Shown here one piece after another: positions 11,758 through 38,422 of a stretch of 64,000 nt of DNA. This DNA comes from Candidatus Doudnabacteria bacterium (lineage in GTDB: Bacteria > Patescibacteriota > Doudnabacteria > UBA920). The DNA lies in assembly GCA_038230955.1 (NCBI GenBank), contig JBBRMG010000001.1:18312-82311 (forward strand), in the 5' to 3' direction. The notes beneath the pieces are model-generated. The model did not search any database. It was not told the origin of the DNA and was given only the letters and a program-made list of their open reading frames with translations. A program made the translations under genes and the position numbers. Numbering within the stretch: position 1 is the first letter of the stretch; each line of letters starts with the position of its first letter.

Positions 11758-12081
11758 TTAGCTCATCTTAATTTCCACGTCCACACCAGCCGGTAAATTG
11801 AGGTTGGTCAGTGAATCTACGGTTTTCGGAGTAGCGTCGAAGATGTCGATCATCCGTTTGTGTACCCGCATTTCAAACTGTTCTCGGCTATCCTTGAACT
11901 TGAAGGTCGCTTTGAGTACGGTGTACTTGGTCTTCTCCGTCGGCAAAGGGACTGGACCAGAAATGGTGGCTCCAGTGCGCTTGGCCGTTTCTACGATCTG
12001 TTTGGCGCTCTGGTCAATCAGTTTATGGTCGTAGGCACGGATTTTGATGCGGATTTTCGGCTTTGCAGCTTCCTTTTCCAT
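11758..12081 (-). CDS. rpsJ: 30S ribosomal protein S10
   Basis: S10 core KIRIKxxAYDHKxxDQS. The ORF also extends to a TTG at 12123, which would add 14 aa, so the start is uncertain and ATG 12081 is preferred. Confidence 0.88.
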
Positions 12082-12206
12082 GAGATTCGTTAGACTGGAA
12101 TTATAAATTTGTTCCCTGAGCAACGCTCAGAAAATACGACTAATACAAATGTATATAGCCATTAGCGGTATTTTAAATCATTATGAATTAAATGTCAACT
12201 ATTTAT

Positions 12207-12248
12207 GAAAAAGAGGGGTGGTTTTTGCTTGAGAGCAATAACCACCCC
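12207..12248 (-). terminator. rho-independent terminator on the minus strand, downstream of gene 12285-12914 and upstream of the S10 operon
   Basis: Stem ggggtggtt (12215-12223) / aaccacccc (12240-12248), with a T-run on the minus strand (aaaaa 12208-12212 on the plus strand). Confidence 0.7.
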
Positions 12249-12284
12249 ATAGAACTTCACGCATCTTCACGATTCAACGAGGAT

Positions 12285-12914
12285 TTAGAACGCCAGACTG
12301 TTTTCAAGTCCATGGTCTGGAACGGTCCAGTCCTCAGGCGTCCAATTCTTCGGCATATTCATTTTGACCTTTGTACGACGGTAAACCAAAATCCATCGTC
12401 CGTCGCCAAACGCATTAGACTTTAGAAATACCAACGTTTCAGGCGCCGCGTCCCCTTCTGGGTCCGCCAACCATTCAGCCGTAAATCCTTTGGCTTGTAA
12501 TATTGACGCATCGTTTTGCGCATCATCCAGAGGATTTGATGTAACGATTTGATAACCGGCAACAGGGTTACCCAACCTTGTCGATAGTTCGAGACGAGTA
12601 AAGTTCACAATGGTATCGTTCCGTAAAAATGCACGGTCCACTTGAGAACTGTTATCTTTCATGACCGGCACATTGCCGCCGCCATGATTATTTAAAACAG
12701 TCAGTACAGCAAGCTGCGCTTCCTTAGTCGAAGTTGCTAATATGGCACCGCCGCCATTATCCGGAAACGGTAAGAAATTGCCACCTCGGAAAAAAGTAAC
12801 GGTAGAATACACTCCTACCAACGTGAAAAGAAGAATGAACGTTTTTGGCGCAAAACTCTTAACGAGATTACTTTTGAAAGTGCTAAAGAATATGATCGCG
12901 GACTCCGACCGCAT
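12285..12914 (-). CDS. hypothetical membrane-anchored protein, possibly with LytR_C-like domains
   Basis: N-terminal TM helix and weak resemblance to the LytR C-terminal domain (VLNNHGGGNV). No firm assignment. Confidence 0.55.
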   Translation of the reverse strand: MRSESAIIFFSTFKSNLVKSFAPKTFILLFTLVGVYSTVTFFRGGNFLPFPDNGGGAILATSTKEAQLAVLTVLNNHGGGNVPVMKDNSSQVDRAFLRNDTIVNFTRLELSTRLGNPVAGYQIVTSNPLDDAQNDASILQAKGFTAEWLADPEGDAAPETLVFLKSNAFGDGRWILVYRRTKVKMNMPKNWTPEDWTVPDHGLENSLAF

Positions 12915-13446
12915 AACCGACCGAGACTACAACCAAATGGACTACCACGCCACCCACGATAACAATTGCCCAATCACCTATTGAAAACGTTATATAAAAA
13001 GCCACTGCAATTAATGCACCTAGCGTCGAGTCCAGTTGGTCGTAAGGAAACCAAGTCTGTCCCGATGGAATATCTATAGCCCGCTTAAAAAAACTTTTAA
13101 TTGCATCCCCAGCTAAGGCGCCAAAGCCGAGCAGAAACCCTAATATTAAAGGGTTGGCAGATTTATAAAACTGCGGTAATTTGTCGGCTAATGCCGGCCA
13201 CCCGGTAACCAAAGAAAATTGCAACACAGTAATAATAACCCCGACAATCACTCCAGCTATAAGCCCGCGAATGGTTTTATGATCACCTAATACACGGCGG
13301 CCACGAATTTTCGCATGAAAATCTAGTGGGTGCGACCATCTGGACAACACAGGCATTTTCGCTACTAATACCGGCGCCATATTAGCAACAATGGCTGGCA
13401 AAAATAACCAGCATAGAAATGCAAATTCTTTTAGAAAATTATTCAT
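12883..13446 (-). CDS. carS: CDP-archaeol synthase (CarS)-like CTP:lipid cytidylyltransferase
   Basis: Strong match to CarS family (DUF46) landmarks: LPAxxANxxPVL, PLDFxxxxRGRRxLGDxKTIxG, GALxGDxxxSFxKRxxxIxxG and DQLD. Confidence 0.8.
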   Translation of the reverse strand: MNNFLKEFAFLCWLFLPAIVANMAPVLVAKMPVLSRWSHPLDFHAKIRGRRVLGDHKTIRGLIAGVIVGVIITVLQFSLVTGWPALADKLPQFYKSANPLILGFLLGFGALAGDAIKSFFKRAIDIPSGQTWFPYDQLDSTLGALIAVAFYITFSIGDWAIVIVGGVVVHLVVVSVGYAVGVRDHIL

Positions 13447-14101
13447 ATGAGATTAAACCCAATCTTTTTTTCCATCTATTAATAGTAGGGTACAAATAAG
13501 CAGACAAGGGTGAATACTCCATCACTAAGTGGGCCTGCGCCAACTGCCCTAACAAATTAGTTCGAGTCGGCGGCTCCGCCAACTCTGTATACGCAGTACC
13601 CAAACCACTTTGCCCATGAGCATCACTCGAACTGGCAACAACAATATTGTACACTCGTGCAAACTCCACTGCCATATTATATTTGCCTCGACCCCACCCA
13701 CGACTATTAAACGCTTCGACAATATCTATGCCGGAGTGATGCTGTTCCAAGTCAGCCTTGTTTAAGCTGTGCCGCCCCAGCTCAAATGGATGGGGAATGT
13801 ACACCAACCCATCTTGTTCTTTAATAGAGCTAATTGTCTCCCCCACCGACAAACCCGCGGGAATTCGTTCCGATAAGTAGAGTCCAATAATTTCTCCACC
13901 TAAACTCAAAATTTCTTCACCAATAATAATCTGATCCCCAATTTTATTGCGTAGGCTCACAGCATTACGAATCTCCTCATGATCTGTAATAGCAATGTAA
14001 TTCAACTGGCCAGCCGCCAATATACTGGAATACTCAAAAGCTTGCACTCCCCCATCCTGTGATACAATTGAGTGGGTATGAAAATCTACTTTAAATGACA
14101 T
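13439..14101 (-). CDS. PHP-domain phosphoesterase
   Basis: PHP motifs VDFHTHS, TDHEE and DAHG. The ORF extends to 14185; MSFKVDFHTHS at 14101 is the expected PHP N-terminus. Confidence 0.75.
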   Translation of the reverse strand: MSFKVDFHTHSIVSQDGGVQAFEYSSILAAGQLNYIAITDHEEIRNAVSLRNKIGDQIIIGEEILSLGGEIIGLYLSERIPAGLSVGETISSIKEQDGLVYIPHPFELGRHSLNKADLEQHHSGIDIVEAFNSRGWGRGKYNMAVEFARVYNIVVASSSDAHGQSGLGTAYTELAEPPTRTNLLGQLAQAHLVMEYSPLSAYLYPTINRWKKRLGLISYE

Positions 14102-14696
14102 GTTAAAATATTTAAAACCATATACCGAATCTGCTTTGCAGAAATTGTTAAGGCATGCGCCTCGCATCAATCCGAATATTATCACGATAGCGGGCTTATT
14201 ACCACCTATCTTTTTTATGTACTTTTTAATTCAGGGTCGATACGGCTGGGCCATACTGTTTTTCTTTGGCGCTTTGCTCGATTTAATAGATGGGGCTTAT
14301 GCTCGCATGACCCATCAGGACACAAAATTTGGAGCAGTATTGGACGCCAGTCTCGACCGAATATCTGATGCAATTATTATCACTGCTTTTGGGTTTGCTG
14401 GGTTAGTTAGTTGGTGGTTATGCGTGGCATTGCTTACAGCGTCCGTCACTATTAGCTACATCAAAGCGCGGGGCGAAGTTTACGCGCCGAGAGCCAAAGC
14501 ATTATCCGTCGGACCCATTGAACGGGCCGAACGGTTGGCATTACTTGCTCTGGGCTTAATTTTATTGGCACTATTCACCAACCGAGAAGCAGGCCACACA
14601 ATTTTATACTATGATTTTGTCATTCTCATTGTACTTTCGAGCATAACAGTTATCCGACGCTTACTAGCAGCACATAAAATTCTGGCTGGGAAATAA
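14100..14696 (+). CDS. CDP-alcohol phosphatidyltransferase family protein
   Basis: Catalytic motif DxxDGxxARxx(8)GxxxDxxxD present as DLIDGAYARMTHQDTKFGAVLDASLDRISD. Multi-TM protein. Confidence 0.85.
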   Translation: MLKYLKPYTESALQKLLRHAPRINPNIITIAGLLPPIFFMYFLIQGRYGWAILFFFGALLDLIDGAYARMTHQDTKFGAVLDASLDRISDAIIITAFGFAGLVSWWLCVALLTASVTISYIKARGEVYAPRAKALSVGPIERAERLALLALGLILLALFTNREAGHTILYYDFVILIVLSSITVIRRLLAAHKILAGK

Positions 14697-14755
14697 AAAA
14701 ATGGGGCAAACAAAATTGTTCACCCCACAAAACTGCAAAAATTTTTGATTACCTG

Positions 14756-15351
14756 CTAGTTAAATCGCATTGTTGCTACGGGACTATTGTTAAAATCAAT
14801 AGCTTTACGGATCTGATACGACAACGCATTCGTTGTCAGGTCAATGACGTCATTGCCCGCCCAAACATTAATGCCTGAATTCTCTTGTGCAAGTGGCCTC
14901 CACATCATGCGCAACAAATTATTGTAAGGCCTCAATTCATCGCACAGGTCAAACACTGCTTTTTATCCGTTTTATAAAGCAGCGATACGGAATGCACTCG
15001 ATTGATAGTACGCGGCATTGAAGATTTAAGCATGTTTAGATTTCTGGCTAATGCCTCGCCCATATATGGACCCACGTCACCAGAAATTGCCACGATGCCG
15101 CCTATGTGAGCCTGAGCGATATTGCTAAAAATATTGGCCACTCTACCAGTTTCATAAATCATGACATTACAGGTCCGAAGATTGTTTTTGTATTTGACTC
15201 CCTCTTGCTCGAGCAATTTAATCATCTCTTTAGGGGCTGTTTCATTACCCAAACATGCAACCACATTTAAGTTTAAAACCAACAGCTTTCTAACTAATAG
15301 ATACAAGAACATGTCAGCCTCGTATCCAAAGATTACAACTGGATTGTTCAT
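14756..15351 (-). pseudogene. frameshifted paralog of gene 15407-16012: ORFs 14932-15351 and 14756-14956 align to consecutive parts of the intact copy
   Basis: The 139-aa ORF matches residues 10-150 of the 201-aa paralog (PVVIFGYEA...GGIVAISGDVG versus PIIIFASEA...GGIIGVVGRGG). The 66-aa ORF in another frame matches the paralog C-terminus (LAQENSGINVWAGNDVIDLTT versus LAKNSPGIAYIGSADSVDSIA). The overlap is near a T5 run at about 14961. Confidence 0.6.
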
Positions 15352-15406
15352 TGATGCACCTCCACAGAATTGTCATCCAAATTTAGAACTTAATACAGAT
15401 CCAAGA

Positions 15407-16012
15407 TTATACAGCACCGACCGTTTCGGCGTTTTTTCTTGTTATTGCCACATCGACCAAACTTGCAATGCTATCAACCGAGTCAGCGCTACCAATGTAA
15501 GCAATGCCGGGAGAGTTCTTGGCAAGACCATGCCATATGGCTTTCATTTTTGGGTTCAAAAATTGCTGGTGCGCCCTTATCTCGCCAATAATTTTTTCGC
15601 CCATCAAAGCAATAACACAGACAACAGCAATTTCGGACACGGTTTTAGGAAGCATGCCTCTGTTAAAATTGACATTATCCACCAAAGCCAATTCCGAATA
15701 GCCACCCCGACCAACCACACCTATTATGCCGCCCAGCGAAACCGGATTACCCATGTAACGGAACAACTCCTTGATTCTTTCTCTGTCAATAATGTGGGCA
15801 AATTGGATATCCAGATTACCCCCATAGGACTCCTTGTTTTCGTAGAACAAGCCGTCCAACTGAGTCTTGGCAAGCTCACTGGCCATACAAACAACGACTT
15901 GGCGATTATAGCTCAACAGCTTAACCACCAAGCAAAATAACAAATTTGTCGCCTCGCTGGCGAAAATTATAATTGGATCTTTCATCTTTTCCTCCCGAAA
16001 ATTTTTTACCAA
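15407..16012 (-). CDS. hypothetical protein, the intact member of a tandem paralog pair
   Basis: 201 aa, possibly Rossmann-like (hhhhFxSEA...GGIIGVVGRGG). No confident family. Confidence 0.6.
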   Translation of the reverse strand: MVKNFREEKMKDPIIIFASEATNLLFCLVVKLLSYNRQVVVCMASELAKTQLDGLFYENKESYGGNLDIQFAHIIDRERIKELFRYMGNPVSLGGIIGVVGRGGYSELALVDNVNFNRGMLPKTVSEIAVVCVIALMGEKIIGEIRAHQQFLNPKMKAIWHGLAKNSPGIAYIGSADSVDSIASLVDVAITRKNAETVGAV

Positions 16013-16131
16013 AATTTAAACCACCAGTCATCCTACCTCAAAACCCGAAATTAATCAAGCCTAGCAATAAAAAAAGACCCCCTTACGGAGGCCTTTTAAA
16101 TATAAGATTTACCTAGTAACTGCGAAAAGAA

Positions 16132-17319
16132 TTACTTAGTAATTTTGACTACCACGCCGGCACCAACTGTGCGGCCACCTTCGCGAATAGCAAACTTACC
16201 TTTTTCTTCCAAAGCGATCGGAGTGATCAACTTGACGGTAACAGTAACTGTATCGCCAGGCATAACCATTTCCTGACCATCAGGAAGGATGACTTCACCA
16301 GTCACGTCGGTTGTACGAACGTAGAACTGAGGTTTGTAACCTTTGAAGAATGGAGTGTGACGTCCACCTTCTTCTTTGGTCAAAACATAAATTTCAGCAT
16401 CGAATTCAGTATGAGGAGTAATAGAACCTGGCTTGGCCAAAACCTGACCACGTTCTACTTCTTCTTTCTTGATACCACGGAGCAACAAACCAGCGTTGTC
16501 ACCGGCCATACCGGAATCCAACTGCTTGTTAAACATTTCAATACCAGTCACAACAGTCTTAGTAGTTGGGCGAATACCGACGATTTCAACATCATTGTTG
16601 ATGTTAATTTCACCACGTTCAATACGACCAGTAACTACAGTACCACGACCTTCAATAGTGAAGATGTCTTCGATAGGCATGAGGAAAGGAAGATCTGTAG
16701 CACGAACTGGATCTGGAATAAATGTGTCCAAAGCATCCATTAACTTATGAATAGATGGTTCGCCCAAGTCAGATGTGTCGCCTTCCAAAGCTTTCAAAGC
16801 GGAACCACGGATAACCGGAGTATCCTTACCTGGGAATTCATACTTGGTCAAAAGATCACGAATTTCTTCTTCAACTAAATCAAGAAGTTCTGCGTCTTGC
16901 ACCATATCACACTTGTTCATGTAAACAACGATGTGAGGCACACCAACTTGCTTAGCAAGCAAGATGTGTTCACGGGTCTGAGGCATAGGACCATCAGTAG
17001 CGGAGACTACGAGGATAGCGCCATCCATTTGAGCCGCACCGGTAATCATATTCTTAATGTAGTCGGCGTGACCAGGACAGTCAACGTGAGCGTAGTGACG
17101 CTTGGCTGTTTCGTATTCTGCGTGTGAGGTATTAATCGTAATACCACGGGCCTTTTCTTCAGGGGCGTTGTCAATGCTCGAGTAATCGCGAGCTTTGGCG
17201 CCACCGGTCTTGGCCAATACCGTTGTGATAGCCGCAGTCAAAGTGGTCTTACCGTGGTCAACGTGACCAATGGTACCGACGTTAACGTGCGTCTTGGAAC
17301 GGTCAAACTTTTCTGCCAT
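16132..17319 (-). CDS. tuf: elongation factor Tu
   Basis: [18 protein letters not shown] and NKCD GTPase motifs. 395 aa. Confidence 0.97.
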
Positions 17320-17577
17320 GTGTTCGTACCTTTCTTGCTGACTACAAAGTAGCGCAGCGATTCACCCGAGATGTCCCTCTCTCCATCCCCTCTGCCGGCC
17401 ACCTTAACACATTATAGTGTCGAGTGGCATCGAGGAGGTAAAGAGAGGGTATCTCTTTTTTTCCTGCTGGAATCCAGAGTGAATAATTAATTATTGATAG
17501 ACAAAAATATGACGGCAAAATACATTGCCAGTCAAGAGTTATTATAATGAGATACCCACCAGCCGTCAAGTTTTAGG

Positions 17578-18096
17578 ATGATTCGCCCAATCCCCCGCGC
17601 CATGGTAAATTACCATAGTATGAATAATGAACCAACGACCAAAATTCTTATCGCCTACAGCACTCTAACCAATAATACGGCCGATGCCGCCACGGCTCTT
17701 CATGAGTCCTTGCGAACAGACTTTCCGGCGCGAATTTTTGAGCTACTTAATATAATCGATATAACTATTGCCCAATTCGCCAATTACGACTTGGTTATTT
17801 TTGGTTCGCCCACCTGGGACGATGGTCCGACTGGCGACACCGAAGCTCTACTCCAAAACCTCGAGGCAACAAAGCCAGATTTGTCCGGTCAAAAATTTGC
17901 CCTATTTGGCTTGGGTGATAAATCTTACGAACCATTCTTCTGCGCCTCTATCTATGAAGTGAAGAAACAATTTGAGAAATATGGCGCACATGTTTTTGCC
18001 GATGTCCATACAATTGACGGCTACCCAATTGATACATTACTAGCCGAACTCGCTCAGTGGGGCAAAACTGTTATTGCAAATATAAATAAGATATAA
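17578..18096 (+). CDS. flavodoxin
   Basis: KILIAYSTLTNNT phosphate-binding loop and the FGSPTWDDG...FGLGDKSY FMN-binding pattern. The true start may be ATG 17620. Confidence 0.8.
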   Translation: MIRPIPRAMVNYHSMNNEPTTKILIAYSTLTNNTADAATALHESLRTDFPARIFELLNIIDITIAQFANYDLVIFGSPTWDDGPTGDTEALLQNLEATKPDLSGQKFALFGLGDKSYEPFFCASIYEVKKQFEKYGAHVFADVHTIDGYPIDTLLAELAQWGKTVIANINKI

Positions 18097-18309
18097 ACTA
18101 AACTTTACTTTTTATTTAGGGGAATTTGATAGGCGTTTGTGTACCATAAATTTGCGTGGGCCAGTCGTCTAACTAGTTAGGACAGGTCCTTGTCAAAGAT
18201 CAAACCCGGGTGCAAGACCCGGCTGGTCCACCATTGACTTGACATGGTAGCAAGTCGTGCTAGAATAATAGTACTTTGACAAGGATCATGGGTATAGAAA
18301 CTTGCACCC

Positions 18310-18345
18310 AAAAAAAACAGCTCTCAGAAATGAGAGCTGTTTTTG
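18310..18345. terminator. bidirectional rho-independent terminator between the convergent flavodoxin and 18363-18698 genes
   Basis: A8 run, then stem cagctctca / tgagagctg, then a T5 run. Confidence 0.75.
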
Positions 18346-18362
18346 TATCCCTTATTATCTTT

Positions 18363-18698
18363 CTAGATATCTTCAAACTCAGTTTGAATGGCTTCGTCAT
18401 CACCGCTACCGTAATCAAAATTAGGATCCATGACTTCGGCGCGCAAATCTACCCTCTGTGGTTTTGGGCTACTAGTGTATGTGTTGGGCATGATCGGCGC
18501 TTCAGCCAACTGAGCTTCAGTAATTTGCCGATTTATACTCTCAATGTCTTCTATCTGATGTTTTAATTTACCCAACAATAAACGCTCATACTCATCAACA
18601 CCCAAAATGACTAACTTAATATCGCCAGACTCGTCCATAATGAATGTTTTGCCAGTGTCGTTCTGAACTAGTTTTATAATATCTTGTAGAGAGGTCAT
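18363..18698 (-). CDS. hypothetical protein with a Phd/YefM-like antitoxin-fold N-terminus and an acidic C-terminal tail
   Basis: The N-terminal 45 aa resemble Phd/YefM (TFIMDESGDIKLVILGVDEYERL). No adjacent toxin. Confidence 0.55.
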   Translation of the reverse strand: MTSLQDIIKLVQNDTGKTFIMDESGDIKLVILGVDEYERLLLGKLKHQIEDIESINRQITEAQLAEAPIMPNTYTSSPKPQRVDLRAEVMDPNFDYGSGDDEAIQTEFEDI

Positions 18699-18781
18699 AT
18701 ATTGACAAATGAATTAGTGTCCCCTATTATATCCTATAACCTCAGAAGGTTCAATGCAGAAAAAACGAAGGAGATATCGCA

Positions 18782-19003
18782 ATGGCAACATATTTTGTTA
18801 GTGGACAACACGTTAAATCAATTCCTGGATTTGGCAACACACCAAACCCTTCTCACTTCGAGATAATCATTGAAGGACCAATAATAAGATCCCAATCGGA
18901 CTACCAGACTCATATTCGAGACCAGGTTGTCGATAAGCTTGACCTCGATACAAGCAAGGATCTTCTGTGGATTAAAACCTGCAATGTCCTCTTTAAGACA
19001 TAG
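18782..19003 (+). CDS. hypothetical small protein
   Basis: 73-aa ORF in an intergenic gap. No motifs. Confidence 0.35.
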   Translation: MATYFVSGQHVKSIPGFGNTPNPSHFEIIIEGPIIRSQSDYQTHIRDQVVDKLDLDTSKDLLWIKTCNVLFKT

Positions 19004-19182
19004 CTATTTGCTTGTTGATTACCAAAAACGCCGCCCGGACCAAAATCCGAGCGGCATCTTTTTTTATAATATCTTGGTGAAGGTTGTAATTTTATCTATA
19101 TATCTCTCAGTATTACTTAAGAAAACCATTGGAGCAACGCGACTGGTTTTCGTAGTAATACTGAAAGATACTAATGTTAATA

Positions 19183-21309
19183 TTACTGTCCCTTACGGAC
19201 ATTAATACCAGCACGAGATTCAACGATCTTTTCAGTCACGTTGCGAGGGACTTCACCATAGTGGTCAAATTCCATAATGGAAGAGGCTTGGCCTTGGGTC
19301 ATAGACCGCAAAGTTGTGGCGTAACCAAACATTTCAGCCAACGGCACTTCAGCAGTAATAATTTTGCGATTAGTAATGTCTTCCATTTCATTAATCCGAG
19401 CACGCTTGGAATTAAGATCACCAATAACATCGCCCATGTTTGCTTCAGGGGTAGTGACAACCACTTTCATGATTGGTTCAAGCAAGATTGGTTCACCCTT
19501 CTTCACTGCTTCTTGGAAAGCCTTCGAACCGGCAATCTTGAACGCCATTTCAGAGGAATCAACTTCATGATATGAACCATCGTACAAAGTGACTTTAAAG
19601 TCGACTACGGGATAACCGGCGATAACACCGTTAGCGGCAGATTCCTGAACACCTTTGTCTACCGGCTTGATGTATTCTTTTGGAATAGCACCACCGACGA
19701 TTTCGTCGACGAACTCATAACCGGCACCGCGCTCAAGTGGGGTAACGCGCAAATATACGTGGCCATATTGACCCCGACCACCAGTTTGGCGGATGTATTT
19801 CGTTTCAGCCTGAGCTTCCTTTTTGAAAGACTCCTTGAAAGCTACTTCAGGCTTACCAACATTGGCTTCTACTTTAAATTCACGCTTCATGCGATCTACC
19901 AAAATTTCCAAATGCAATTCGCCCATACCAGCAATAATAGTTTGCTGAGTTTCTTCGTCGGAAGTAACTTTGAAAGTCGGATCTTCTTCCGCCAATTTCT
20001 GCATAGCAATACCCATTTTTTCTTGGTCAGCCTTTGTCTTCGGCTCAATCGACATAGAAATAACTGGGTCAGCAAATTTAATCTTTTCTAATTCAATGGG
20101 GTCAGATTCCGCGCAAAGGGTGTCGGCAGTAATAGTGTCTTTCGGACCTACTAAAGCACAAATATCACCGGCGTAGACTTCTTTCACTTCATCGCGCTGA
20201 TCAGCGCGCATGCGCACCATACGGCCAACGCGTTCACGGTTGCCACTGCGAGCATTTAGTACATACGAACCAGCTTCCAATTTTCCGGAATACACGCGGA
20301 AGAACACCAGACGACCAACGAATGGGTCGGTAGCGATTTTGAAAGCCAAAGCAGTAAACGGTTCGTCGTCACTTGGGTTACGAATTAGCTCTTCCCCATT
20401 GCGCGGGTTATGCCCCTTTACCGGACCCTTGTCTAACGGGCTTGGCAAGAAGTTAGTAACACCATCAAGCAATGTTCGAACAATGATACCGCGACCATCG
20501 CCGCCGAATACTGGGTAGAACTCACCGGAACGAGTCGCTTTGCGGATAGCAATCATTAATTCTTCTTCAGTCAATTCAGTACCACCAAGATACTTTTCCA
20601 TTAACTGGTCATCGAACTCGACGACCTTCTCTATTAATTCATGTCGATACTTTTCCGCCTTCTCTTTCATGTCAGCCGGTACTTCACCCACGACGAATTC
20701 TTTATCAGTAAAATCAGTGTACGTGTAGGTTTTCATCTGCACCAAATCAATTACACCATTGATTTCTTTTTCGAAACCTAACGGCAATTGGACCGGAAAA
20801 GCGTTCTTGGTTAAACGAGTGTGAATAGATTCAAGCGACTTGTAGAAGTCACCGCCAGTTTGGTTTATTTTGTTGATGAAACACATGCGAGGCACACCAT
20901 ATTTGTCAGCTTGGCGCCACACAGTTTCGCTTTGCGGCTCAACACCCATCTTCCCGTCGAATACGGTAATGGCCCCATCGAGCACACGCAAAGACCGTTC
21001 CACTTCAACGGTAAAGTCTACGTGGCCTGGGGTATCGATAATGTTAATCTTGTACTTCTTGTCTTTTCCATCAATGCTGATGTATTGCGGATTCCAGTAA
21101 CAGGTAACCGCAGCGGAGGTAATGGTAATACCGCGCTCGCGTTCCTGCTCCATCCAGTCAGTCACGGTTTCACCTTCGTGCACCGCACCAATTTTGTGGA
21201 TCATCCCCGTGTGAAAGAGAATACCCTCAGTCGTCGTGGTTTTACCCGCGTCGATGTGAGCGATAATCCCGATATTGCGGGTGTCTTCAATTGCGTAATC
21301 TCGAGGCAT
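19183..21309 (-). CDS. fusA: elongation factor G
   Basis: 708 aa with [17 protein letters not shown] and NKxD motifs. Confidence 0.97.
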
Positions 21310-21357
21310 AGTTTAATGGTTATTTATTGGGGGTTTTATAGGTTTTATTGTCATTAC

Positions 21358-21386
21358 TTGACAAATCTATTTTTTTATGCTATAGT
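21358..21386 (+). promoter_or_regulatory. consensus sigma70-type promoter (TTGACA, 17 nt, TATAGT) driving the small ORF 21409-21567
   Basis: ttgaca at 21358-21363, a 17-nt spacer, tatagt at 21381-21386, then a GGAGGA Shine-Dalgarno 9 nt before the ATG. Confidence 0.65.
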
Positions 21387-21408
21387 GCAGTTGGAGGATA
21401 TAGATTTT

Positions 21409-21567
21409 ATGAGAAACAAGACAGCGAGGGATTATGTATTCCCGATCATTTTATCTGCAATATTCGGTTTTGCTTTTGGCCTCTACAATAGAGGAACTGT
21501 GCAAGCCGGATTAGGATACGCTCTTGTCGGCGCAATCATCAGTTTTGGTATCAGACTAATGATGTAG
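21409..21567 (+). CDS. small hydrophobic protein (52 aa, two predicted TM segments)
   Basis: Near-consensus promoter, strong RBS, and a rho-independent terminator immediately downstream. Lies between fusA and rpsG on the opposite strand. Confidence 0.6.
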   Translation: MRNKTARDYVFPIILSAIFGFAFGLYNRGTVQAGLGYALVGAIISFGIRLMM

Positions 21568-21587
21568 AATTCGATGGGTTGCATGTT

Positions 21588-21623
21588 GACGGTTTGCTTT
21601 CACGAGTGAACCGTCTTTTTTTA
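21588..21623 (+). terminator. rho-independent terminator
   Basis: Stem gacggtt (21588-21594) / aaccgtc (21609-21615), then a T8 run. Confidence 0.75.
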
Positions 21624-21630
21624 TTCCCTA

Positions 21631-22143
21631 CTATTTCCGCTTGTTACCGAACCTTGCAAAGTGAGCAAACGCTTTGTTTGCTTCAGCCATACGGTGAGTA
21701 TCTTCGCGCTTCTTGAAAGCAGTTCCCTGCTTCTGAAAACCATCTAAGATTTCACCGGCCAGCTTCTGAGCCATTGGGGCGCCTTTTTTGCTGCGAGCAG
21801 CATTGATCATCCATTTCATACCTAATGCGGTACGACGAGGTTCTGGTACTTCCATCGGCACCTGGTAGTTTGAGCCACCAATACGGCGACCCTTAATTTC
21901 CATAATTGGGCTGATGTTTTTCAAAGCAGTTTCAAATATTTCGCGATTGTCTTTGTCAGCAGCGTCCGGAATATTCTTGGACTTTTCAGCAACAATATCT
22001 AAAGCTGTGTAAAAGATTTTCTGAGATACGGTCTTCTTGCCGCGTTCCATCATATAGTTGATGAACTTGGCGTACTTCACACTGCTGAACTTTGGATCCG
22101 GCAGTGGAGTGTGTTTATCGTAACTTCTTGCTCTGCGTGGCAT
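21631..22143 (-). CDS. rpsG: 30S ribosomal protein S7
   Basis: 170 aa with S7 motifs and str-operon position. Confidence 0.93.
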   Translation of the reverse strand: MPRRARSYDKHTPLPDPKFSSVKYAKFINYMMERGKKTVSQKIFYTALDIVAEKSKNIPDAADKDNREIFETALKNISPIMEIKGRRIGGSNYQVPMEVPEPRRTALGMKWMINAARSKKGAPMAQKLAGEILDGFQKQGTAFKKREDTHRMAEANKAFAHFARFGNKRK

Positions 22144-22274
22144 GTCGTCGTAAATTTAGTTCCCGGTTTCGTAGTCGAATAAATTCAACTTCTCAACCTT
22201 TCACTAAATTTCTCCTCTAAGAATTTTGCTTAACTCCCTATAGGGAGCCCAAGTAAAATTCTTTGTAATTACTG

Positions 22275-22700
22275 TTAAGCAGCCGGGGCTGGGCGCTTAG
22301 CGCCATATTTGCTGCGAGAGCGTCGACGACCTTCAACGCCTAGAGTATCTAACTTACCGCGGACAATGTGATAGCGCACACCTGGCAAATCTTTCACACG
22401 ACCACCGCGAATCATAACCACACTGTGTTCCTGCAAGTTGTGGCCAACTCCCGGGATATATGCGAGTACTTCCATACCGTTGGTCAATTTGACCTTAGCA
22501 ACCTTACGCAAAGCCGAGTTCGGCTTCTTTGGGGTGGTGGTATAAACCTTTAGACAAACGCCGCGAATAAACGGAGCGCCAGTTGGCAGGTTGATAACCT
22601 TGTTCTTGATAAGGTTCACGCGACGTTGCAGGGCCGGAGATTTGCTCTTCGACTTCAACGGATGGCGTCCCTTTCTCACAATCTGGTTGATTGTAGGCAT
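22275..22700 (-). CDS. rpsL: 30S ribosomal protein S12
   Basis: PTINQxxRKGR N-terminus and PKKPNSAxRKV. Confidence 0.96.
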
Positions 22701-23218: not shown

Positions 23219-23641
23219 ATGCGATTTGTATGTGATACAAACATATATCTGGCAGCACTTCGTCGAGGTGGTTTTTGTAATACTGTACTGGAATTGATAT
23301 TAAGCACTGACAATACTCATGAATTGTGGGTTTCTGAATTTATCATTCAAGAAACCAAGAAAAAAGCTGCAGTGTTTGCTCTAAAAAAGCTCGCGTCTCA
23401 ATATGATATTGACAGAATTCTGCAAACAATTGAATCGAGCGCTCATATTTCATTTCCTTCCCGTGAACGAATCACTAATGTCTCACGTGATCCCGACGAC
23501 AATAGAATTCTGGAATGCGCTGTGTCGGCTCAAGCCGATGTTATCGTCACTATGGATAAAGATTTATTGGTGCTAAAACAATTTCGCGGCATTGCCATAG
23601 TCCATCCCAAAACTTTCATTTACATGCAGCCCAAGGACTAA
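23219..23641 (+). CDS. PIN-domain toxin (VapC-like)
   Basis: Acidic PIN residues are present (CDTN near the N-terminus, then DPDDNRILECA and VTMDKD). Confidence 0.75.
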   Translation: MRFVCDTNIYLAALRRGGFCNTVLELILSTDNTHELWVSEFIIQETKKKAAVFALKKLASQYDIDRILQTIESSAHISFPSRERITNVSRDPDDNRILECAVSAQADVIVTMDKDLLVLKQFRGIAIVHPKTFIYMQPKD

Positions 23642-24642
23642 GCATCCTCTCTTGTTAACATTTCCTCTAGCACACTTTCTTTAATACCATAGGTATTGCC
23701 ATGATTCATCAAGCCCAAATATGACTGCAAAGTCTCGTCCATGGGACTATTGCGTAATTGCTTCATCATTCTGCGCTTGGTAGTAGTGCGTATAACAGTG
23801 TGATCAGGAAAATGCACCCAGCCAAGAAAATCTACTCCCGAAACAAAAGTTTTCAGATACAGCTTATCCGGGTGCAATGTCAAATTTAGCCTACTTTTCA
23901 AGAATTCTGAAATTTGGGCAATTTGAGAAATTAACGCTTCTCTATCGTCGGACAAAAATACAAAATCATCAGCGTATCTTATGTAGTATTTTGCGTGCAA
24001 TTTGTGTTTCACAAACTGATCAAACTCATTCATATAAATATTACAGAACAGCTGTGATGTTAAATTACCTAATGGTAACCCAACTCCCGGCAAGGTAGAA
24101 AAACTATCAATAATTTGCTCCAGTAATTGCATTAGAGGTAAGTCCGAAATATATTGAGACAGTATACCTATGAGTACTCCATGATTAATGCTGGCAAAAA
24201 ACTTTTTTATATCACACTTTAAGACCCAACATGTCCGTCTATGGTTTCTACTCACTTTATAGGCAAACGCACGGAACCTCTTTATCGCCTTGTACGTTCC
24301 CTTATCAATCCGGCATGAATAGGAATTAGCAATAAAAGTCCTATCAAAAAACGGATACAATGTCCGGTACAAAGCGTGATGCAAAATCCTGTCTCGCACA
24401 GAAGCCTTGTGAATCTGTCGCGGTTTGGGATCAGTAATGCTAAATGCGCTATAATATGAGTGCTGGTATGTGCCGCTGGCCAAATCCCTATGCAACTCAA
24501 TGAGATTGCCCATTAAATTATGTTCAAATTCTTGCACATCTTTACGCTGTCTTTTGCCCCGAACAAACTCAGTCCATGCTTCCAGTAAATTTTCTAGTGA
24601 AATAATATCTTTATAATCATGTCTGAATTGAACCTTGCTCAT
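23638..24642 (-). CDS. DGR reverse transcriptase
   Basis: YADDFVF catalytic motif. The DGR-specific motif LGNLTSQ carries SQ where other RTs have QGxxxSP. About 335 aa with no maturase or endonuclease domain. A TR/VR pair lies adjacent. The ORF continues 8 codons upstream to a TTG at 24666. Confidence 0.88.
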   Translation of the reverse strand: MSKVQFRHDYKDIISLENLLEAWTEFVRGKRQRKDVQEFEHNLMGNLIELHRDLASGTYQHSYYSAFSITDPKPRQIHKASVRDRILHHALYRTLYPFFDRTFIANSYSCRIDKGTYKAIKRFRAFAYKVSRNHRRTCWVLKCDIKKFFASINHGVLIGILSQYISDLPLMQLLEQIIDSFSTLPGVGLPLGNLTSQLFCNIYMNEFDQFVKHKLHAKYYIRYADDFVFLSDDREALISQIAQISEFLKSRLNLTLHPDKLYLKTFVSGVDFLGWVHFPDHTVIRTTTKRRMMKQLRNSPMDETLQSYLGLMNHGNTYGIKESVLEEMLTREDA

Positions 24643-25023
24643 AGTAATAATAGTACCCCCCCCCAACGGATTTTACCAGTATTGCAAAAAGTAAAAATTG
24701 CCTATTTGCTATGGTTTGATTATTACCAAATTCTGCCCAAGTTACATAGGCATTCATTAGGCCATAAAGTCGATAATTTGTTTGTCGAACTCATAGAAGC
24801 GATAGTTTCTGCCAGTTTCTTGTCCCCGCACGAAAAACTACCTTATATTAGGCTAGCCATTAAGAAAAACGACACAGTCAAAATCCTGTTGATGATGCTA
24901 TGGGAAACCCACTCCCTGGATGGCAAACAATATATTGCGCTGTCTGTAAAAATCGACGAAATCGGAAGAATGCTCGGTGGTTGGAATGGTCAAATCACAA
25001 AACAAAACTCTCCTCGAAAATAG
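24619..25023 (+). CDS. avd: DGR accessory variability determinant (Avd-like)
   Basis: The C-terminus EIGRMLGGWNGQITKQ closely resembles Bordetella phage bAvd (EVGRILGSWIARVNRK), and upstream helices align. Lies next to the TR. It is on the strand opposite to the RT. Confidence 0.7.
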   Translation: MSELNLAHSNNSTPPQRILPVLQKVKIAYLLWFDYYQILPKLHRHSLGHKVDNLFVELIEAIVSASFLSPHEKLPYIRLAIKKNDTVKILLMMLWETHSLDGKQYIALSVKIDEIGRMLGGWNGQITKQNSPRK

Positions 25024-25043
25024 GAGGAGAGAAATGAAAGAGA

Positions 25044-25175
25044 ATTGCGGACGCGAAACACAAACTCGTTGTTGCCATTCCAATGATTGTCTAGCTTGCC
25101 ATTGTTGTTGTTCAACCACGGTTCGTCGTCGTTCCGATTGACGTTGAACAGATTCGGATTGCCGTTCGGGTCAGT
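25044..25175 (-). repeat. DGR template repeat (TR)
   Basis: About 132 nt and about 80% identical to the 3' end of the target gene. Nearly all mismatches place TR adenines on the coding strand against non-A bases in the VR. AAC-rich codons (NNNNG, NGNN). Non-coding. Confidence 0.88.
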
Positions 25176-25493
25176 TTTGTATAATATGCCGTCTGCTACA
25201 CCATCCTTTGAGTGCTCTGTTAGCATTCTGGGGATTGAATCGTATTCGGCATTTAAATATGCCCTAGCATACTACACCAAGTTTCTTCATTTTTTTGAAG
25301 TGTCTGCATGCACCACTCTATTTTTAACCGTAATCAAAAATATTCCCGAGGCATGGATACTGGATTCGGTAGCAAACAACCATAATCGTTTGCGTATGCA
25401 CCTATTACCAATGGTATTATAGCAAAAATTTAGGCTGCAAAGGACAAAGATACAAAGTGCCAAGACTAGAGCAAGCTAGTCAAGCACCAAGGA

Positions 25494-27587
25494 CTATTTG
25501 CGGACGCGAAACACAAACCCGTCGCTGCCATCCCAACGATCGCCTAGCTTGCCACTGCTGCTGAGCAACCACGGCCCGTCGTCGTGCCGATAGACGTCGA
25601 ACAGACGCGGACCGCCACCCGAGCCAGTTATGGGGTCCATGGCTATTCTTAAGTATTCACCATTCGGCTGGTCAGCATATGCCAATCTCAATTCTGGCCC
25701 TGTTTGCGGCGGACACAGTTCTAAATTTAATTCTTTAACCCTGTTGAAAATAGCTTCTAGGTTAGCACCGTTAGGAAATCCTAATTGCTCGACCGTAAAT
25801 TTAACCAAATCAACGCGTTCAGACTCGGACAATGCCCGTATTTTTACCAACATGCTTTTAGCGTAGTCAGATATTCTATTTCCTGTTTTCACTAGCTCCT
25901 GCTCGTATTGCATAGGAGTTTTAGTAGACAGCTCAATAGTTTTTCTGAATATCTTTTTCTCTGGGAAAGACTCATATAAATGCTGAATATGTTCAGGCAT
26001 TGTTCGCATTATGTCCGGAGACCACTGGCCAATATATAACTTTGTAGATTCCTTTATTTCCTGCTGCCCCAGAGCGATTTCTTCAGGCTTGCAGTCTATA
26101 TTGGCCACAATGCGAATAATCTTAGCGACGTCGGTCCTAGTCATATCAGGCGTAATTTCCATCTCACCCATTTTGAGGACAAAGACATTGTCATCCGGGT
26201 TAAAATCGTGAAAATCAACTTCACCATGCTCGGTTAAAATATGGTAGTCTTTGACTTTAATATTTCCCAGTTCGCTGTCAGAAATTTTCCTAAAGTCCCG
26301 CAGTTGGCCGGTGTCCGTTTGGGTAGTGCGAAGCTGTTTCAAAGCATCGATTACATCTGCAAAGTAAGGATCCTCCGGACTTAGGTATTCATCGTCCTGC
26401 TTCTTCATTTGCTCAATAGTTTTGGTTTTAAGATTATATTCCATTGTAATAATGGGCGTATCTCGATATACCTTTTGGCTACCGTTATCAAACTTAGGAG
26501 TTACCCTGAATGACAAAATTTCAATTTCACCACGCTTCATCTGGTTGATATACGAATCGCTTGTGCCAACGCAGTGTCTCATGTATTCTGATTCTTCCTC
26601 TAAGTGCGGCATGTTCAGCATGCGAGCGACATAATATTTACCTGACTCAGTTTGAACTAGATTTTCCCACGGATTCACCGCTGCGCTGTCTCCCATTTCC
26701 GCCCGCTTTTTGCGCATCTCTGCAATTTTTTGCAAAGTTTTTTCTTGGTGAACTTCCAGTAGCCGGTGCAAGCTACCTTTATCCGTATCGATAAATTTAG
26801 GGCTTTCGATAATAGCGTCAAATAAGTCATTCAAATCTATACTTTCATTGGCCGTGAAATGACGCGCCAATTTGAGTCTCAGCACGCTCTGCTGGCGCTG
26901 ATCAAAAGCAAAGTCTTGCTGACCGGAAAGCCTGCCACTTAAAGTTTGGTACGCACCATTGATGGCACTTTCTTTTTGCGGCTTGTTGTCAGGAGAAAAT
27001 GAACCCAAGGTTTGTTGGTATCGTTGGTTGAGTTCAGTTAAATACTTGGCTTCAAAAGCTTTTTTACGTTCTTCATCAACTTGCTCTGGCGATTTATCTT
27101 CTGTCAGTGGTTTCTCGTAATAATCGACTGCGTATCCTGCCATATTGTCTGTACGAATGCGTTCAAAGCCGAATCGTTCTAGGACATGATTCAACCTATC
27201 ATTCCAGCCATGAAAATTGAGCCGCATATAACCTTGTTGTTTTGCGTATTCTATGAAAGCTGGTATCTCCCGTAAAGCGCTGCGACCAGTCTGACGGGTA
27301 GTGCCGAAATACTTTATGTAAGCTTCATGCGGAATAAATTCTTCGCAGGCAATATAGCCAGTTATTTCACCTTTATCGCCAGTAATCAATTTGTTGAGAG
27401 GATGGCCATTTTCAAGTGTGCGGATGACATCCTCTACTGCCATAGACCGAATAGCCTCATCCACTTCAGTAATGCCTTGTGTGATAGCGCGGACGCTATC
27501 TTTTTGCTCCTCATTCATAACCAAGCCCGGCTTTTCTTCCAAGCGTTCCGGTATATATACGGTTTCTGGTGTATGACCTGTTTCCAT
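25494..27587 (-). CDS. DGR target protein carrying the C-terminal VR
   Basis: 698 aa from ATG 27587. The ORF is open to 27650 but that would overlap the upstream gene. The C-terminal 44 aa are encoded by the VR (…DPITGSGGGPRLFDVYRHDDGPWLLSSSGKLGDRWDGSDGFVFRVRK). Confidence 0.8.
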   Translation of the reverse strand: METGHTPETVYIPERLEEKPGLVMNEEQKDSVRAITQGITEVDEAIRSMAVEDVIRTLENGHPLNKLITGDKGEITGYIACEEFIPHEAYIKYFGTTRQTGRSALREIPAFIEYAKQQGYMRLNFHGWNDRLNHVLERFGFERIRTDNMAGYAVDYYEKPLTEDKSPEQVDEERKKAFEAKYLTELNQRYQQTLGSFSPDNKPQKESAINGAYQTLSGRLSGQQDFAFDQRQQSVLRLKLARHFTANESIDLNDLFDAIIESPKFIDTDKGSLHRLLEVHQEKTLQKIAEMRKKRAEMGDSAAVNPWENLVQTESGKYYVARMLNMPHLEEESEYMRHCVGTSDSYINQMKRGEIEILSFRVTPKFDNGSQKVYRDTPIITMEYNLKTKTIEQMKKQDDEYLSPEDPYFADVIDALKQLRTTQTDTGQLRDFRKISDSELGNIKVKDYHILTEHGEVDFHDFNPDDNVFVLKMGEMEITPDMTRTDVAKIIRIVANIDCKPEEIALGQQEIKESTKLYIGQWSPDIMRTMPEHIQHLYESFPEKKIFRKTIELSTKTPMQYEQELVKTGNRISDYAKSMLVKIRALSESERVDLVKFTVEQLGFPNGANLEAIFNRVKELNLELCPPQTGPELRLAYADQPNGEYLRIAMDPITGSGGGPRLFDVYRHDDGPWLLSSSGKLGDRWDGSDGFVFRVRK
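25497..25628 (-). repeat. DGR variable repeat (VR) at the 3' end of the target gene
   Basis: Aligns to the TR with about 25 adenine-specific substitutions. Followed 6 nt after the stop codon by the hairpin 25457-25487. Confidence 0.88.
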
Positions 27588-27630
27588 AACTATATTATTA
27601 CAAATATTATAACTCGAGTAAATCGTGGAC

Positions 27631-28239
27631 CTATAACAACTGTACCCCAATAACCCTTGAGAACACCGATACCACCGGCAACAAAATACGTTCTAGTAAC
27701 CCCAAATACAACATTATAAACACCAGAATAAATCCGAACCGTTCCCACTCTAAAATTTTGTAAGTTAGTGCATCGGGCAGGAATGAGGCTACCACTTTGC
27801 TACCATCGAGCGGTGGGATTGGGATAAGATTGAAAGTGCCCAAAACAATGTTAAGTAGTACTATCTGAGTCAAAATTGGTAAGGAAATATAGTTAGTCAA
27901 ACCCAGCTTAATTGGAATAGCGAAGATAATAGCCAAAGCAAAATTGCTCAAGGGTCCAGCGAGGCTAACCAAAGCCATACCGAGTTTACGGGGCTGAAGT
28001 CGATTAAAATTAACGGGCACCGGCTTGGCCGCACCGAAGATTATAGGACTGCCCAGCAATAATAAAGCGGCTGGCAAAAGAATCGAGCCGAATGGGTCAA
28101 TGTGAGAAATTGGGTTTAAAGTAATGCGGCCCTGTTCTCGGGCGGTATCATCACCCAGTCGTTCGGCCATTAATCCATGACAAACTTCGTGGATAATCGC
28201 AGAAAATAAAAGGATTGCTAAAGTGATTATTATGTTCAT
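27631..28239 (-). CDS. site-2 protease family (peptidase M50) membrane metalloprotease
   Basis: HEVCHG HExxH motif in a TM segment. Polytopic. Confidence 0.8.
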   Translation of the reverse strand: MNIIITLAILLFSAIIHEVCHGLMAERLGDDTAREQGRITLNPISHIDPFGSILLPAALLLLGSPIIFGAAKPVPVNFNRLQPRKLGMALVSLAGPLSNFALAIIFAIPIKLGLTNYISLPILTQIVLLNIVLGTFNLIPIPPLDGSKVVASFLPDALTYKILEWERFGFILVFIMLYLGLLERILLPVVSVFSRVIGVQLL

Positions 28240-37891: not shown

Positions 37892-38422
37892 TTATCGACC
37901 CACCGTAAAGAGAAGTGAATACCCAAAATAGTAGATAAATATCGCTCCAATAATACCAATGGCTACCCCAGCGGCCACATCAGTGGCATAGTGATACCCT
38001 ACCACCACTCGAGCCCAACCAGCCATTACACTGACTCCTAAAATAACAGCTCCCGATATTGGATGAAAGAACATAAGCATTACACCAATGCTCGTTAGGC
38101 TCGCCACGTGCTTTGACGGAAATGAGTTGAGCTTCTCAGTGCGCCGGCTAAACCATCTGCTAGTTCTGGGTTCAAAATTATACCGCTGATAAGGTCGTTG
38201 ACGATGATATAGTTGAGCAACAATATTACAGAGTATGCCGCGGCTAAATCCAAATGCGGCCACACATAACAACAACTCGGCCCGTCCGTTGCGGGTGTAA
38301 AGTAGTAATGCCATTGGCATTAAAAGAAAAATAGAATAAATCGACCAAAACAGCCAAAACTGTCGAAACAGGCCAGACTGGGCTAGCTTCTGTTGTTGAT
38401 GACGATAGTACTGTTCTTTCAT
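37892..38422 (-). CDS. PAP2-family phosphatase (BcrC/PgpB-like)
   Basis: PAP2 motifs PSKH and SRxxxGYHYxTD. Confidence 0.8.
   Translation of the reverse strand: MKEQYYRHQQQKLAQSGLFRQFWLFWSIYSIFLLMPMALLLYTRNGRAELLLCVAAFGFSRGILCNIVAQLYHRQRPYQRYNFEPRTSRWFSRRTEKLNSFPSKHVASLTSIGVMLMFFHPISGAVILGVSVMAGWARVVVGYHYATDVAAGVAIGIIGAIFIYYFGYSLLFTVGR

Follow-up and report, generated by a model that had tools for sequence, protein, structure and literature searches.

In the 64-kb stretch of Candidatus Doudnabacteria DNA analyzed here (contig JBBRMG010000001.1; hereafter the window, to which our searches for linked genes in this genome were confined), three genes at 12883-14696 encode a CarS-family cytidylyltransferase, a PHP-fold phosphoesterase, and a CDP-alcohol phosphatidyltransferase (CAPT). 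We read this module as a phosphatidylinositol (PI) headgroup-remodelling operon in a lipid-scavenging Patescibacterium, and would put the probability of this reading at roughly 55%, with our confidence in the PHP step taken by itself being lower than that in the pathway overall. According to the proposal, phosphatidate would come from the host, or be made from scavenged diacylglycerol (DAG) by a lipid kinase of the YegS/Rv2252 type, a step that other lineages encode within the operon and for which no gene was seen in the window. The CarS-family enzyme, standing in for bacterial CdsA, would then convert phosphatidate and CTP into CDP-diacylglycerol (CDP-DAG), which the transferase, being of the phosphatidylinositol phosphate (PIP) synthase type, would combine with L-myo-inositol-1-phosphate to give PIP. 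Lastly, the PHP metallophosphatase, presumably coupled to CarS in translation, would dephosphorylate PIP to PI, which itself may proceed to glycosylated anchors. The three-step logic offered by the first-pass annotation of this DNA, namely the activation of a lipid, the transfer of a phospho-alcohol, and the dephosphorylation of the product, holds, and can be sharpened to inositol phosphate by the conserved residues for binding this headgroup.

Enzyme families and active sites of the module

The coordinates that the first-pass annotation gave for the three genes, as well as the CATG (14099-14102) in which it placed the start codons of two of them, were confirmed by an open reading frame (ORF) listing and by direct reading of the sequence, with the choice of starts also being backed by alignments of homologs. 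Here, the CarS-like gene (12883-13446) and the PHP gene (13439-14101) lie on the minus strand, and the transferase gene (14100-14696) is on the plus strand. The divergent PHP and transferase genes have the CATG in common and hence zero intergenic DNA between them, while at the other end of the PHP gene, the stop codon overlaps the CarS start by 8 nt (ATGAATAA; 13439-13446, minus strand), which suggests translational coupling of this pair.

The CarS-like protein has 187 residues, and its membership of the CarS family, as claimed in the first pass, is borne out by a match of 95.8 bits to Pfam CarS-like (PF01864), well past the cut-off of 22. Against the NCBIfam model for CDP-archaeol synthase (NF003114), the match is full-length at 119.8 bits, with the cut-off of 148 not reached. 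Judged by these scores, the protein appears to be a member of the Pfam family that lies outside the curated archaeal equivalog, though "CDP-archaeol synthase" is the label that the gene already bears at NCBI and JGI. The CdsA-type family (PF01148) is matched with merely 24 bits. Among sequences in the protein data bank (PDB), the sole match is the A. pernix CarS (PDB ID: 5GUF; E 1.3e-11), and this was also the only structure found by Foldseek in the PDB at E<1e-3 (E 5e-5, TM-scores of 0.59 and 0.68, 32% identity) when searched with the AlphaFold model (pLDDT 89.6), TmCdsA being a far weaker fold match. The model has the CarS fold, that of a small membrane protein which, like 5GUF, has about five transmembrane segments and a polar cavity on the cytoplasmic side. 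Moreover, the motif GD114xxxSFxK121R122...D136QxD139 aligns with the equivalent motif of 5GUF, and D114, S118, K121, R122, and D139 are invariant in 24 CarS-like homologs, with D136 conserved in at least 90% of them; together, we infer these six residues to be a putative CTP/metal site.

The closest relative of the CarS-like protein among GTDB species representatives is 50% identical. For the phylogeny, we used neighbour-joining (NJ), a distance method, on 23 Patescibacterial, 17 named archaeal, and 10 unnamed sequences, the named archaeal set having come from an A. pernix-seeded search and including CarS proteins from Thermoproteota, Thermococci, Methanobacteriaceae, Methanomethylicia, Marsarchaeota, MSBL1, and others. 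With archaeal sampling limited to this set, the Patescibacterial proteins fall outside the named archaeal CarS and form a clade of their own, inside which there is no named archaeal sequence (50/50 NJ bootstraps). Sequence identity is 49% within the Patescibacterial clade, and 31% between Patescibacterial and archaeal proteins.

The product of the transferase gene (198 residues) matches Pfam CDP-OH_P_transf with 68 bits and carries the complete signature D61xxD64G65xxA68R69x8G78xxxD82xxxD86, confirming the earlier identification of a CAPT with the full motif. Across 67 homologs, D61, D64, G65, A68, G78, D82, and D86 are at least 99% conserved, and R69 is found in 91%. Of the NCBIfam models, archaetidylinositol phosphate (AIP) synthase scored 139.8 bits (cut-off of 180, not reached), PIP synthase 99.3 bits (cut-off of 170, not reached), and pgsA merely 32 bits. 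The PDB matches are PIP synthases, with PgsA not among them, and a profile of the transferase family aligns over the full length of the M. tuberculosis PIP synthase (MtPIPS; PDB ID: 6H53) with 102 bits. By mutagenesis, inositol-phosphate binding in MtPIPS was assigned to S132, K135, R155, and R195 (PMC4634129). All four have their counterpart in the transferase (S119, K122, R145, and R187), and S119, R145, and R187 are at least 99% conserved in the 67 Patescibacterial homologs, with K122 not kept family-wide. Going by these residues, the headgroup can be specified as a predicted inositol phosphate. No alternative start of the transferase that retains the conserved P25 and T29 was found. A role in synthesis of the osmolyte di-myo-inositol phosphate (IPCT/DIPPS) was considered as well, and was rejected in view of the scores (57 versus 102 bits), the lack of a nucleotidyltransferase domain, and a partner that is a membrane lipid enzyme.

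As read from the ATG at 14101, the PHP protein has 220 residues, its reading frame staying open as far as the GTG at 14185 (ORF 13439-14185, minus strand); homologs start to align at the ATG (residues 1-5 of the 220-residue form) and not at the GTG. A public gene call for this protein (P0122, 202 residues) begins about 18 codons late, and so loses the HxH motif. Its description as a PHP phosphoesterase stands on a weak PHP_C match (PF13263, 27.4 bits against a cut-off of 21.3), the fold, and the metal motifs, and does not extend to PF02811, for which the 18.6 bits fall under the cut-off of 26.4. The score with the CehA/McbA model is 40 bits. With the AlphaFold2 model (pLDDT 94.4), the best Foldseek matches were 3E38 and 2ANU (E 5e-10 to 1e-9, TM-score of about 0.67) and the RNase AM structure 7UG9. 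Moreover, H8, H10, D40, H41, E62/E63, H104, D160, and H162 are shared without exception by 30 PHP homologs, and these we take to be the canonical PHP metal ligands (HxH, DH, E, H, and DxH). The proteins make up a distinct and highly conserved subfamily of about 217 residues (44-64% identity). All Pfam and NCBIfam matches of the PHP protein are PHP-type, with the PgpA family not among them, and should the protein act as a PIP phosphatase, it would be an analogue of the PgpA-type enzyme rather than a member of that family. We regard it as the candidate phosphatase because the PIP pathway requires one, and what points to it in particular is its conserved place in the operon. A C-terminal amphipathic anchor was also considered for the PHP protein, but with a hydrophobic moment that is not outstanding, it was excluded from the evidence.

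Conservation of the operon across Patescibacteria

When one genome was scanned for each GTDB species, a CarS-like relative turned up in at least 581 of them, and from these loci we took the best 80, one per species genome, for counting neighbours in flanks of ±8 kb, the neighbour families being sought with profiles built in this analysis. By label, nearly all of the 80 loci are from Patescibacteria, the names including Saccharibacteria, Levy-, Roizman-, Dojka-, Doudna-, and Collierbacteria, and Microgenomates, with the operon being commonest in the Saccharibacteria-labelled genomes. For seven loci (L008, L010, L012, L023, L028, L048, and L050), the record titles read "uncultured Gammaproteobacteria", "Chloroflexia", or "Limnocylindrales", and the operon is of the typical Patescibacterial kind; wrongly labelled bins or contamination probably account for these metagenome-assembled genomes, as opposed to a true occurrence outside Patescibacteria.

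In 58 of the 80 loci, CarS is directly preceded by a PHP gene on its own strand, a transferase lies within 3 kb of CarS in 66, and both are found in 56. Here, divergent transferase genes account for 30 loci and co-directional ones for 36, the spacers being very small in the divergent case, and gaps in the divergent PHP/transferase pairs of other genomes are near zero too, as judged from longest-ORF calls. The identical 8-nt overlap of PHP and CarS appears in the provider gene calls of three loci (L001, L003, and L004), and an overlap of 4-14 nt is possible in 32 of the 44 directly adjacent pairs. Moreover, when about 1,250 neighbour ORFs were clustered all-against-all, the CarS, PHP, and transferase families were the sole ones with strong co-conservation (75, 61, and 55 loci). 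The three-gene association is far above chance, and represents a lineage-wide operon. In the first pass, the module was viewed as unusual given the minimal lipid biosynthesis expected of such a bacterium; this view is overturned, as the module is a standard Patescibacterial feature (at least 581 species genomes).

Several further families recur at these loci. In 14 of them, a lipid kinase of the YegS/Rv2252/BmrU family (DAGK_cat) sits between the PHP and CarS genes, and a second DAGK_cat family is close by in 7 more. Rv2252 is a DAG kinase that feeds the synthesis of phosphatidylinositol mannosides (PIMs). Inositol-3-phosphate synthase (MIPS, 482 bits) is encoded within 8 kb of CarS in 9 of the 80 loci, frequently along with a LysR regulator, and a PIG-L/MshB-family deacetylase and phosphoglucose isomerase recur near some loci. 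At two loci, a PgsA neighbour takes the place of the PIP synthase/PHP pair: in a Dojkabacteria locus (L025, 5473-6045), it lies about 2.5 kb upstream of the CarS-like gene and scores 130 bits with TIGR00560, passing the cut-off of 109.1, and in a Collierbacteria locus (L064, 4754-5305), it adjoins the CarS-like gene with 105 bits, just under that cut-off. Several Saccharibacteria have an additional PgsA/ClsA-like paralog close to CarS. Among the annotated recurrent neighbour clusters, there was no UbiA, geranylgeranylglyceryl phosphate synthase (GGGPS), digeranylgeranylglyceryl phosphate synthase (DGGGPS), or prenyl-synthase family, and a query with E. coli CdsA found CarS-like ORFs alone in the window and in the flanks of the 80 loci. 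In 6 loci, a protein of about 320 residues fills the kinase slot between PHP and CarS (L035, 7022-7984, and five others); the notion that it is DAGK-like was rejected, there being no detectable kinase similarity and no Pfam or NCBIfam match.

Taken together, these neighbours point to the CarS-like enzyme as a general supplier of CDP-DAG to bacterial-type headgroup transferases, fed by the phosphorylation of DAG. An acyl rather than an isoprenoid substrate is likely, as judged from the PgsA neighbours, the lipid kinases, the annotated neighbours free of isoprenoid-ether families, and a lipidome in which 72 of 72 intact polar lipids from a cell-size fraction dominated by the candidate phyla radiation (CPR) were acylglycerols (PMC7242380). 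The enzyme, then, probably activates acyl phosphatidate and not archaeol.

Alternative readings and known pathways

Some of the results weigh against the PI reading. For the transferase, the archaeal AIP-synthase model outscores the bacterial PIP-synthase model (139.8 versus 99.3 bits), the equivalog cut-offs of both are missed, and the acyl-stacking proline of MtPIPS (P153) is lost, being replaced by A143. Archaeal CarS, where characterized, uses digeranylgeranylglyceryl phosphate in strong preference to phosphatidate, and fails to complement cdsA of E. coli (PMC9385802). For the PHP protein, the nearest solved relatives are uncharacterized or act on nucleotides or RNA, and come without a substrate-level assignment, and the hydrophobic moment of its C-terminal basic helix is unremarkable. 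As regards linkage, no PHP gene adjoins CarS in 22 of the 80 loci, MIPS is limited to 9 of the 80, and our own profiles for MIPS, the lipid kinase, and a second CAPT found nothing in the 64-kb window even at E<=10.

In another reading, the CarS and transferase steps are as proposed, with the PHP protein being a nucleotide or RNA phosphoesterase (of the RNase AM/pAp-phosphatase type) or a by-product hydrolase that is co-transcribed for other reasons, PIP then being cleaved by another enzyme. Its characterized nearest structural relatives (7UG9, 9ETK, and 2YB1) do act on nucleotides or RNA, there is no transmembrane segment, little speaks for a membrane-binding helix, and the PHP gene is not next to CarS at more than a quarter of loci (22/80). 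A PAP2-family membrane phosphatase encoded within the window (37892-38422, minus strand) offers an alternative lipid phosphatase, though its best matches are undecaprenyl-diphosphatases. However, the conserved place of PHP directly between transferase and CarS in 56 of the 80 loci, with overlapping starts and stops, is hard to square with an unrelated function, and the protein belongs to the distinct and highly conserved subfamily described above; we consider this scenario unlikely, if far from negligible. The same chemistry, in which CDP-DAG and a phospho-alcohol are joined and the product is dephosphorylated, would also serve for phosphatidylglycerol, with the transferase as a divergent PgsA making phosphatidylglycerol phosphate and the PHP protein as its phosphatase. 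The weak pgsA and ClsA matches and the window devoid of MIPS would fit, but the 32 bits for pgsA compare poorly with 140 for AIP synthase and 99 for PIP synthase, the PDB matches are PIP synthases and not PgsA, the inositol-phosphate-binding residues are kept family-wide, MIPS is linked in 9 loci, and several genomes have their own PgsA/ClsA-like paralogs near CarS, which together render this route distinctly improbable.

A truly archaeal-type route would involve CDP-archaeol made from an isoprenoid ether lipid, either self-made or from an archaeal host, followed by AIP synthase and dephosphorylation by the PHP protein. Here, the best NCBIfam models of both membrane enzymes are archaeal (119.8 and 139.8 bits), the best structural match is the A. 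pernix CarS, and titles and abstracts report Patescibacteria that parasitize methanogenic archaea. Nevertheless, both proteins fall under the archaeal equivalog cut-offs, the Patescibacterial CarS-like clade is separate (50/50 bootstraps), GGGPS, DGGGPS, and prenyl synthases are missing from the annotated recurrent neighbours, where a DAG-kinase-family kinase and canonical PgsA are found instead, and three archaeal CarS loci that were inspected have neither a CAPT nor a PHP neighbour. The lipids of the CPR-dominated fraction, moreover, are all acylglycerols (PMC7242380), and the operon is commonest in Saccharibacteria, whose cultivated members are reported to grow on Actinobacteria. We accordingly view the archaeal route as very improbable. 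The transfer of an operon from archaea was rejected on present evidence, given the three archaeal loci. Of the first-pass wording that the activating enzyme is archaeal-type and differs from CdsA, the CarS-type part is upheld (PF01148 at 24 bits, 5GUF best by both sequence and fold), while an archaeal substrate or a recent transfer finds no favour with the separate clade, the scores below the equivalog cut-off, the PgsA neighbours, and the acylglycerol lipids. There is also the question of whether the CarS-like protein makes a CDP-lipid in the first place. The CTP-transferase superfamily, to which it has a 24-bit match (PF01148), includes CTP-dependent kinases such as yeast Dgk1 and dolichol kinase, and a CTP-dependent lipid kinase would be conceivable on that count. 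Yet the match to CarS is full-length and specific by both sequence and fold, genes for a dedicated ATP-type lipid kinase often lie beside the CarS-like one, and the adjoining transferases need a CDP-activated donor, for which no other candidate synthase was seen in the window and flanks; this leaves the kinase with the slimmest of chances.

Returning to PI synthesis, the route through PIP is established in Actinobacteria and Bacteroides. A PIP phosphatase has been identified in Bacteroides alone, and is from the PgpA family (PMC9246714), the enzyme being termed "unidentified" for other bacteria and archaea. The module resembles the mycobacterial/actinobacterial pathway (CdsA, then PgsA1/PIP synthase, then PIP phosphatase) in the two-step synthesis of PI via PIP from CDP-DAG and inositol-1-phosphate, in a transferase that aligns over its full length with MtPIPS and has retained both its CAPT motif and the S/R/R inositol-phosphate residues, and in the linkage of an Rv2252-family lipid kinase in some Patescibacterial genomes. 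It differs in having a CarS-family activator in place of CdsA, in a transferase that lacks the MtPIPS P153 and falls under the PIP-synthase equivalog cut-off, and in an operon that includes a PHP phosphatase candidate, whereas the mycobacterial phosphatase is still unidentified. With the BT_1522-1526 cluster of B. thetaiotaomicron (MIPS, PIP synthase, and PgpA-family PIP phosphatase; PMC9246714), it shares the grouping of a PIP synthase gene with one for a phosphatase dedicated to PIP, joined by MIPS in some Patescibacteria. In contrast, the Patescibacterial phosphatase candidate has a PHP fold unrelated to PgpA (BT_1525), the cluster includes a CDP-lipid synthase and is without sphingolipid genes, and a BT_1523-type model scores merely 51 bits. 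The archaeal pathway from CarS to AIP synthase has the identical two enzyme families, with the best NCBIfam models and the 5GUF fold being archaeal, but the Patescibacterial clade is separate at 31% identity and under the equivalog cut-offs, archaeal CarS loci (three inspected) are without CAPT or PHP neighbours, and the Patescibacterial substrate is likely acyl. Taken together, the use of a CarS-family enzyme for CdsA and of a PHP protein for the PgpA-type phosphatase would be two apparent non-orthologous replacements.

The nearest published precedent concerns the Saccharibacterium "T. rhizospherense", for which the available excerpts of Starr et al. (2018, PMC6031116) propose that scavenged 1,2-diacyl-sn-glycerol-3-phosphate is turned into CDP-DAG, PI, and PIMs with no fatty-acid synthesis. 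As in our proposal, a putative phosphatidate cytidylyltransferase makes CDP-DAG from a scavenged lipid; those excerpts differ in giving an annotation-level mapping for one genome, with the operon, the CarS identity, the PIP intermediate, and the PHP phosphatase going unmentioned there. In the literature that pairs CDP-archaeol synthase with CPR or Patescibacteria, of which full-text coverage is incomplete, CarS in these bacteria, the operon, and a PHP-type PIP phosphatase are undiscussed, and Coleman et al. (2019) mention neither CDP-archaeol, CdsA, nor CPR.

Genomic setting and biological meaning

The module lies within the conserved str/S10 ribosomal region (11758-22700), between tuf (16132-17319) and rpsJ (11758-12123). 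A G+C-rich hairpin with a T-run (14701-14728) begins 5 nt past the stop codon of the transferase gene, and with its 12-pair stem, 5 G-C pairs, and minus-strand tail TTTTTTATTT, this terminator-like element would delimit the module on the transferase side. On the other side, downstream of the module, a promoter-like site for the S10 operon, near to consensus, is found at 12198-12170. Because of the hairpin and this site, we regard the module as a separate unit between tuf and rpsJ. A promoter scan gave no more sites than in shuffled sequence, and none is claimed for the zero-spacer divergent pair. In related genomes, the module is found in other genomic contexts.

Other ORFs in this region were also noted. 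One of 209 residues (12285-12914, minus strand) has a hydrophobic N-terminus and shares 32 nt with the 3' end of the CarS-like gene; no family match was obtained for it, and none of the other 80 loci has it near CarS. The stretch from tuf to the lipid module holds two adjacent minus-strand ORFs at 14932-15351 (139 residues) and 15407-16012 (201 residues) that are mutual paralogs (E ~1e-13). Neither matches a Pfam or NCBIfam family, and nothing related to them turned up in the 80 related loci. Between fusA and tuf are a flavodoxin gene (17578-18096) and small ORFs. Pfam annotation of 20 further genes of the window revealed no pls, cds, or isoprenoid-lipid genes. Farther along is a cassette (23638-27650) that is like a diversity-generating retroelement (DGR), with a reverse transcriptase (RVT_1; 23638-24666, minus strand) and a 135-nt template-like repeat at 25045-25179 that matches 25498-25632, the latter being the 3' end of a 718-residue gene (25494-27650, minus strand) with a weak PcfJ-like match. 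The two copies have 27 differences, and at 25 of these the first copy has a T, i.e., an A on the coding strand, in what appears to be the adenine-specific substitution pattern of DGRs.

As to its meaning, the module is ordinary for the lineage and no oddity of this genome, and as a system, we regard it as a variation on PI synthesis via PIP in bacteria. According to a 2024 perspective, Patescibacteria are without lipid biosynthesis, and no mechanism of lipid uptake or breakdown has been identified in them (PMC11665869). The operon offers a concrete and testable route for acquired lipid, consisting of its re-activation and the addition of an inositol headgroup, and with small proteins and standard assays, it is directly testable. 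A broader proposal, which we advance tentatively and at somewhat less than even odds, is that throughout Patescibacteria a CarS-family enzyme took over the synthesis of acyl CDP-DAG and became tied to an inositol-phosphate transferase and a new, non-homologous PIP phosphatase of the PHP fold, with the operon being the core of the conversion, by these lipid-auxotrophic epibionts, of host lipid to PI-based membrane and glycolipid anchors of their own. If true, the label "CDP-archaeol synthase" would need correcting in hundreds of bacterial genomes, and a CarS-family enzyme that is active on acyl lipids would be relevant to arguments about the lipid divide. Likewise, the PHP protein would represent a second and structurally unrelated class of prokaryotic PIP phosphatase, an enzyme for which the mycobacterial and archaeal pathways still have a gap.

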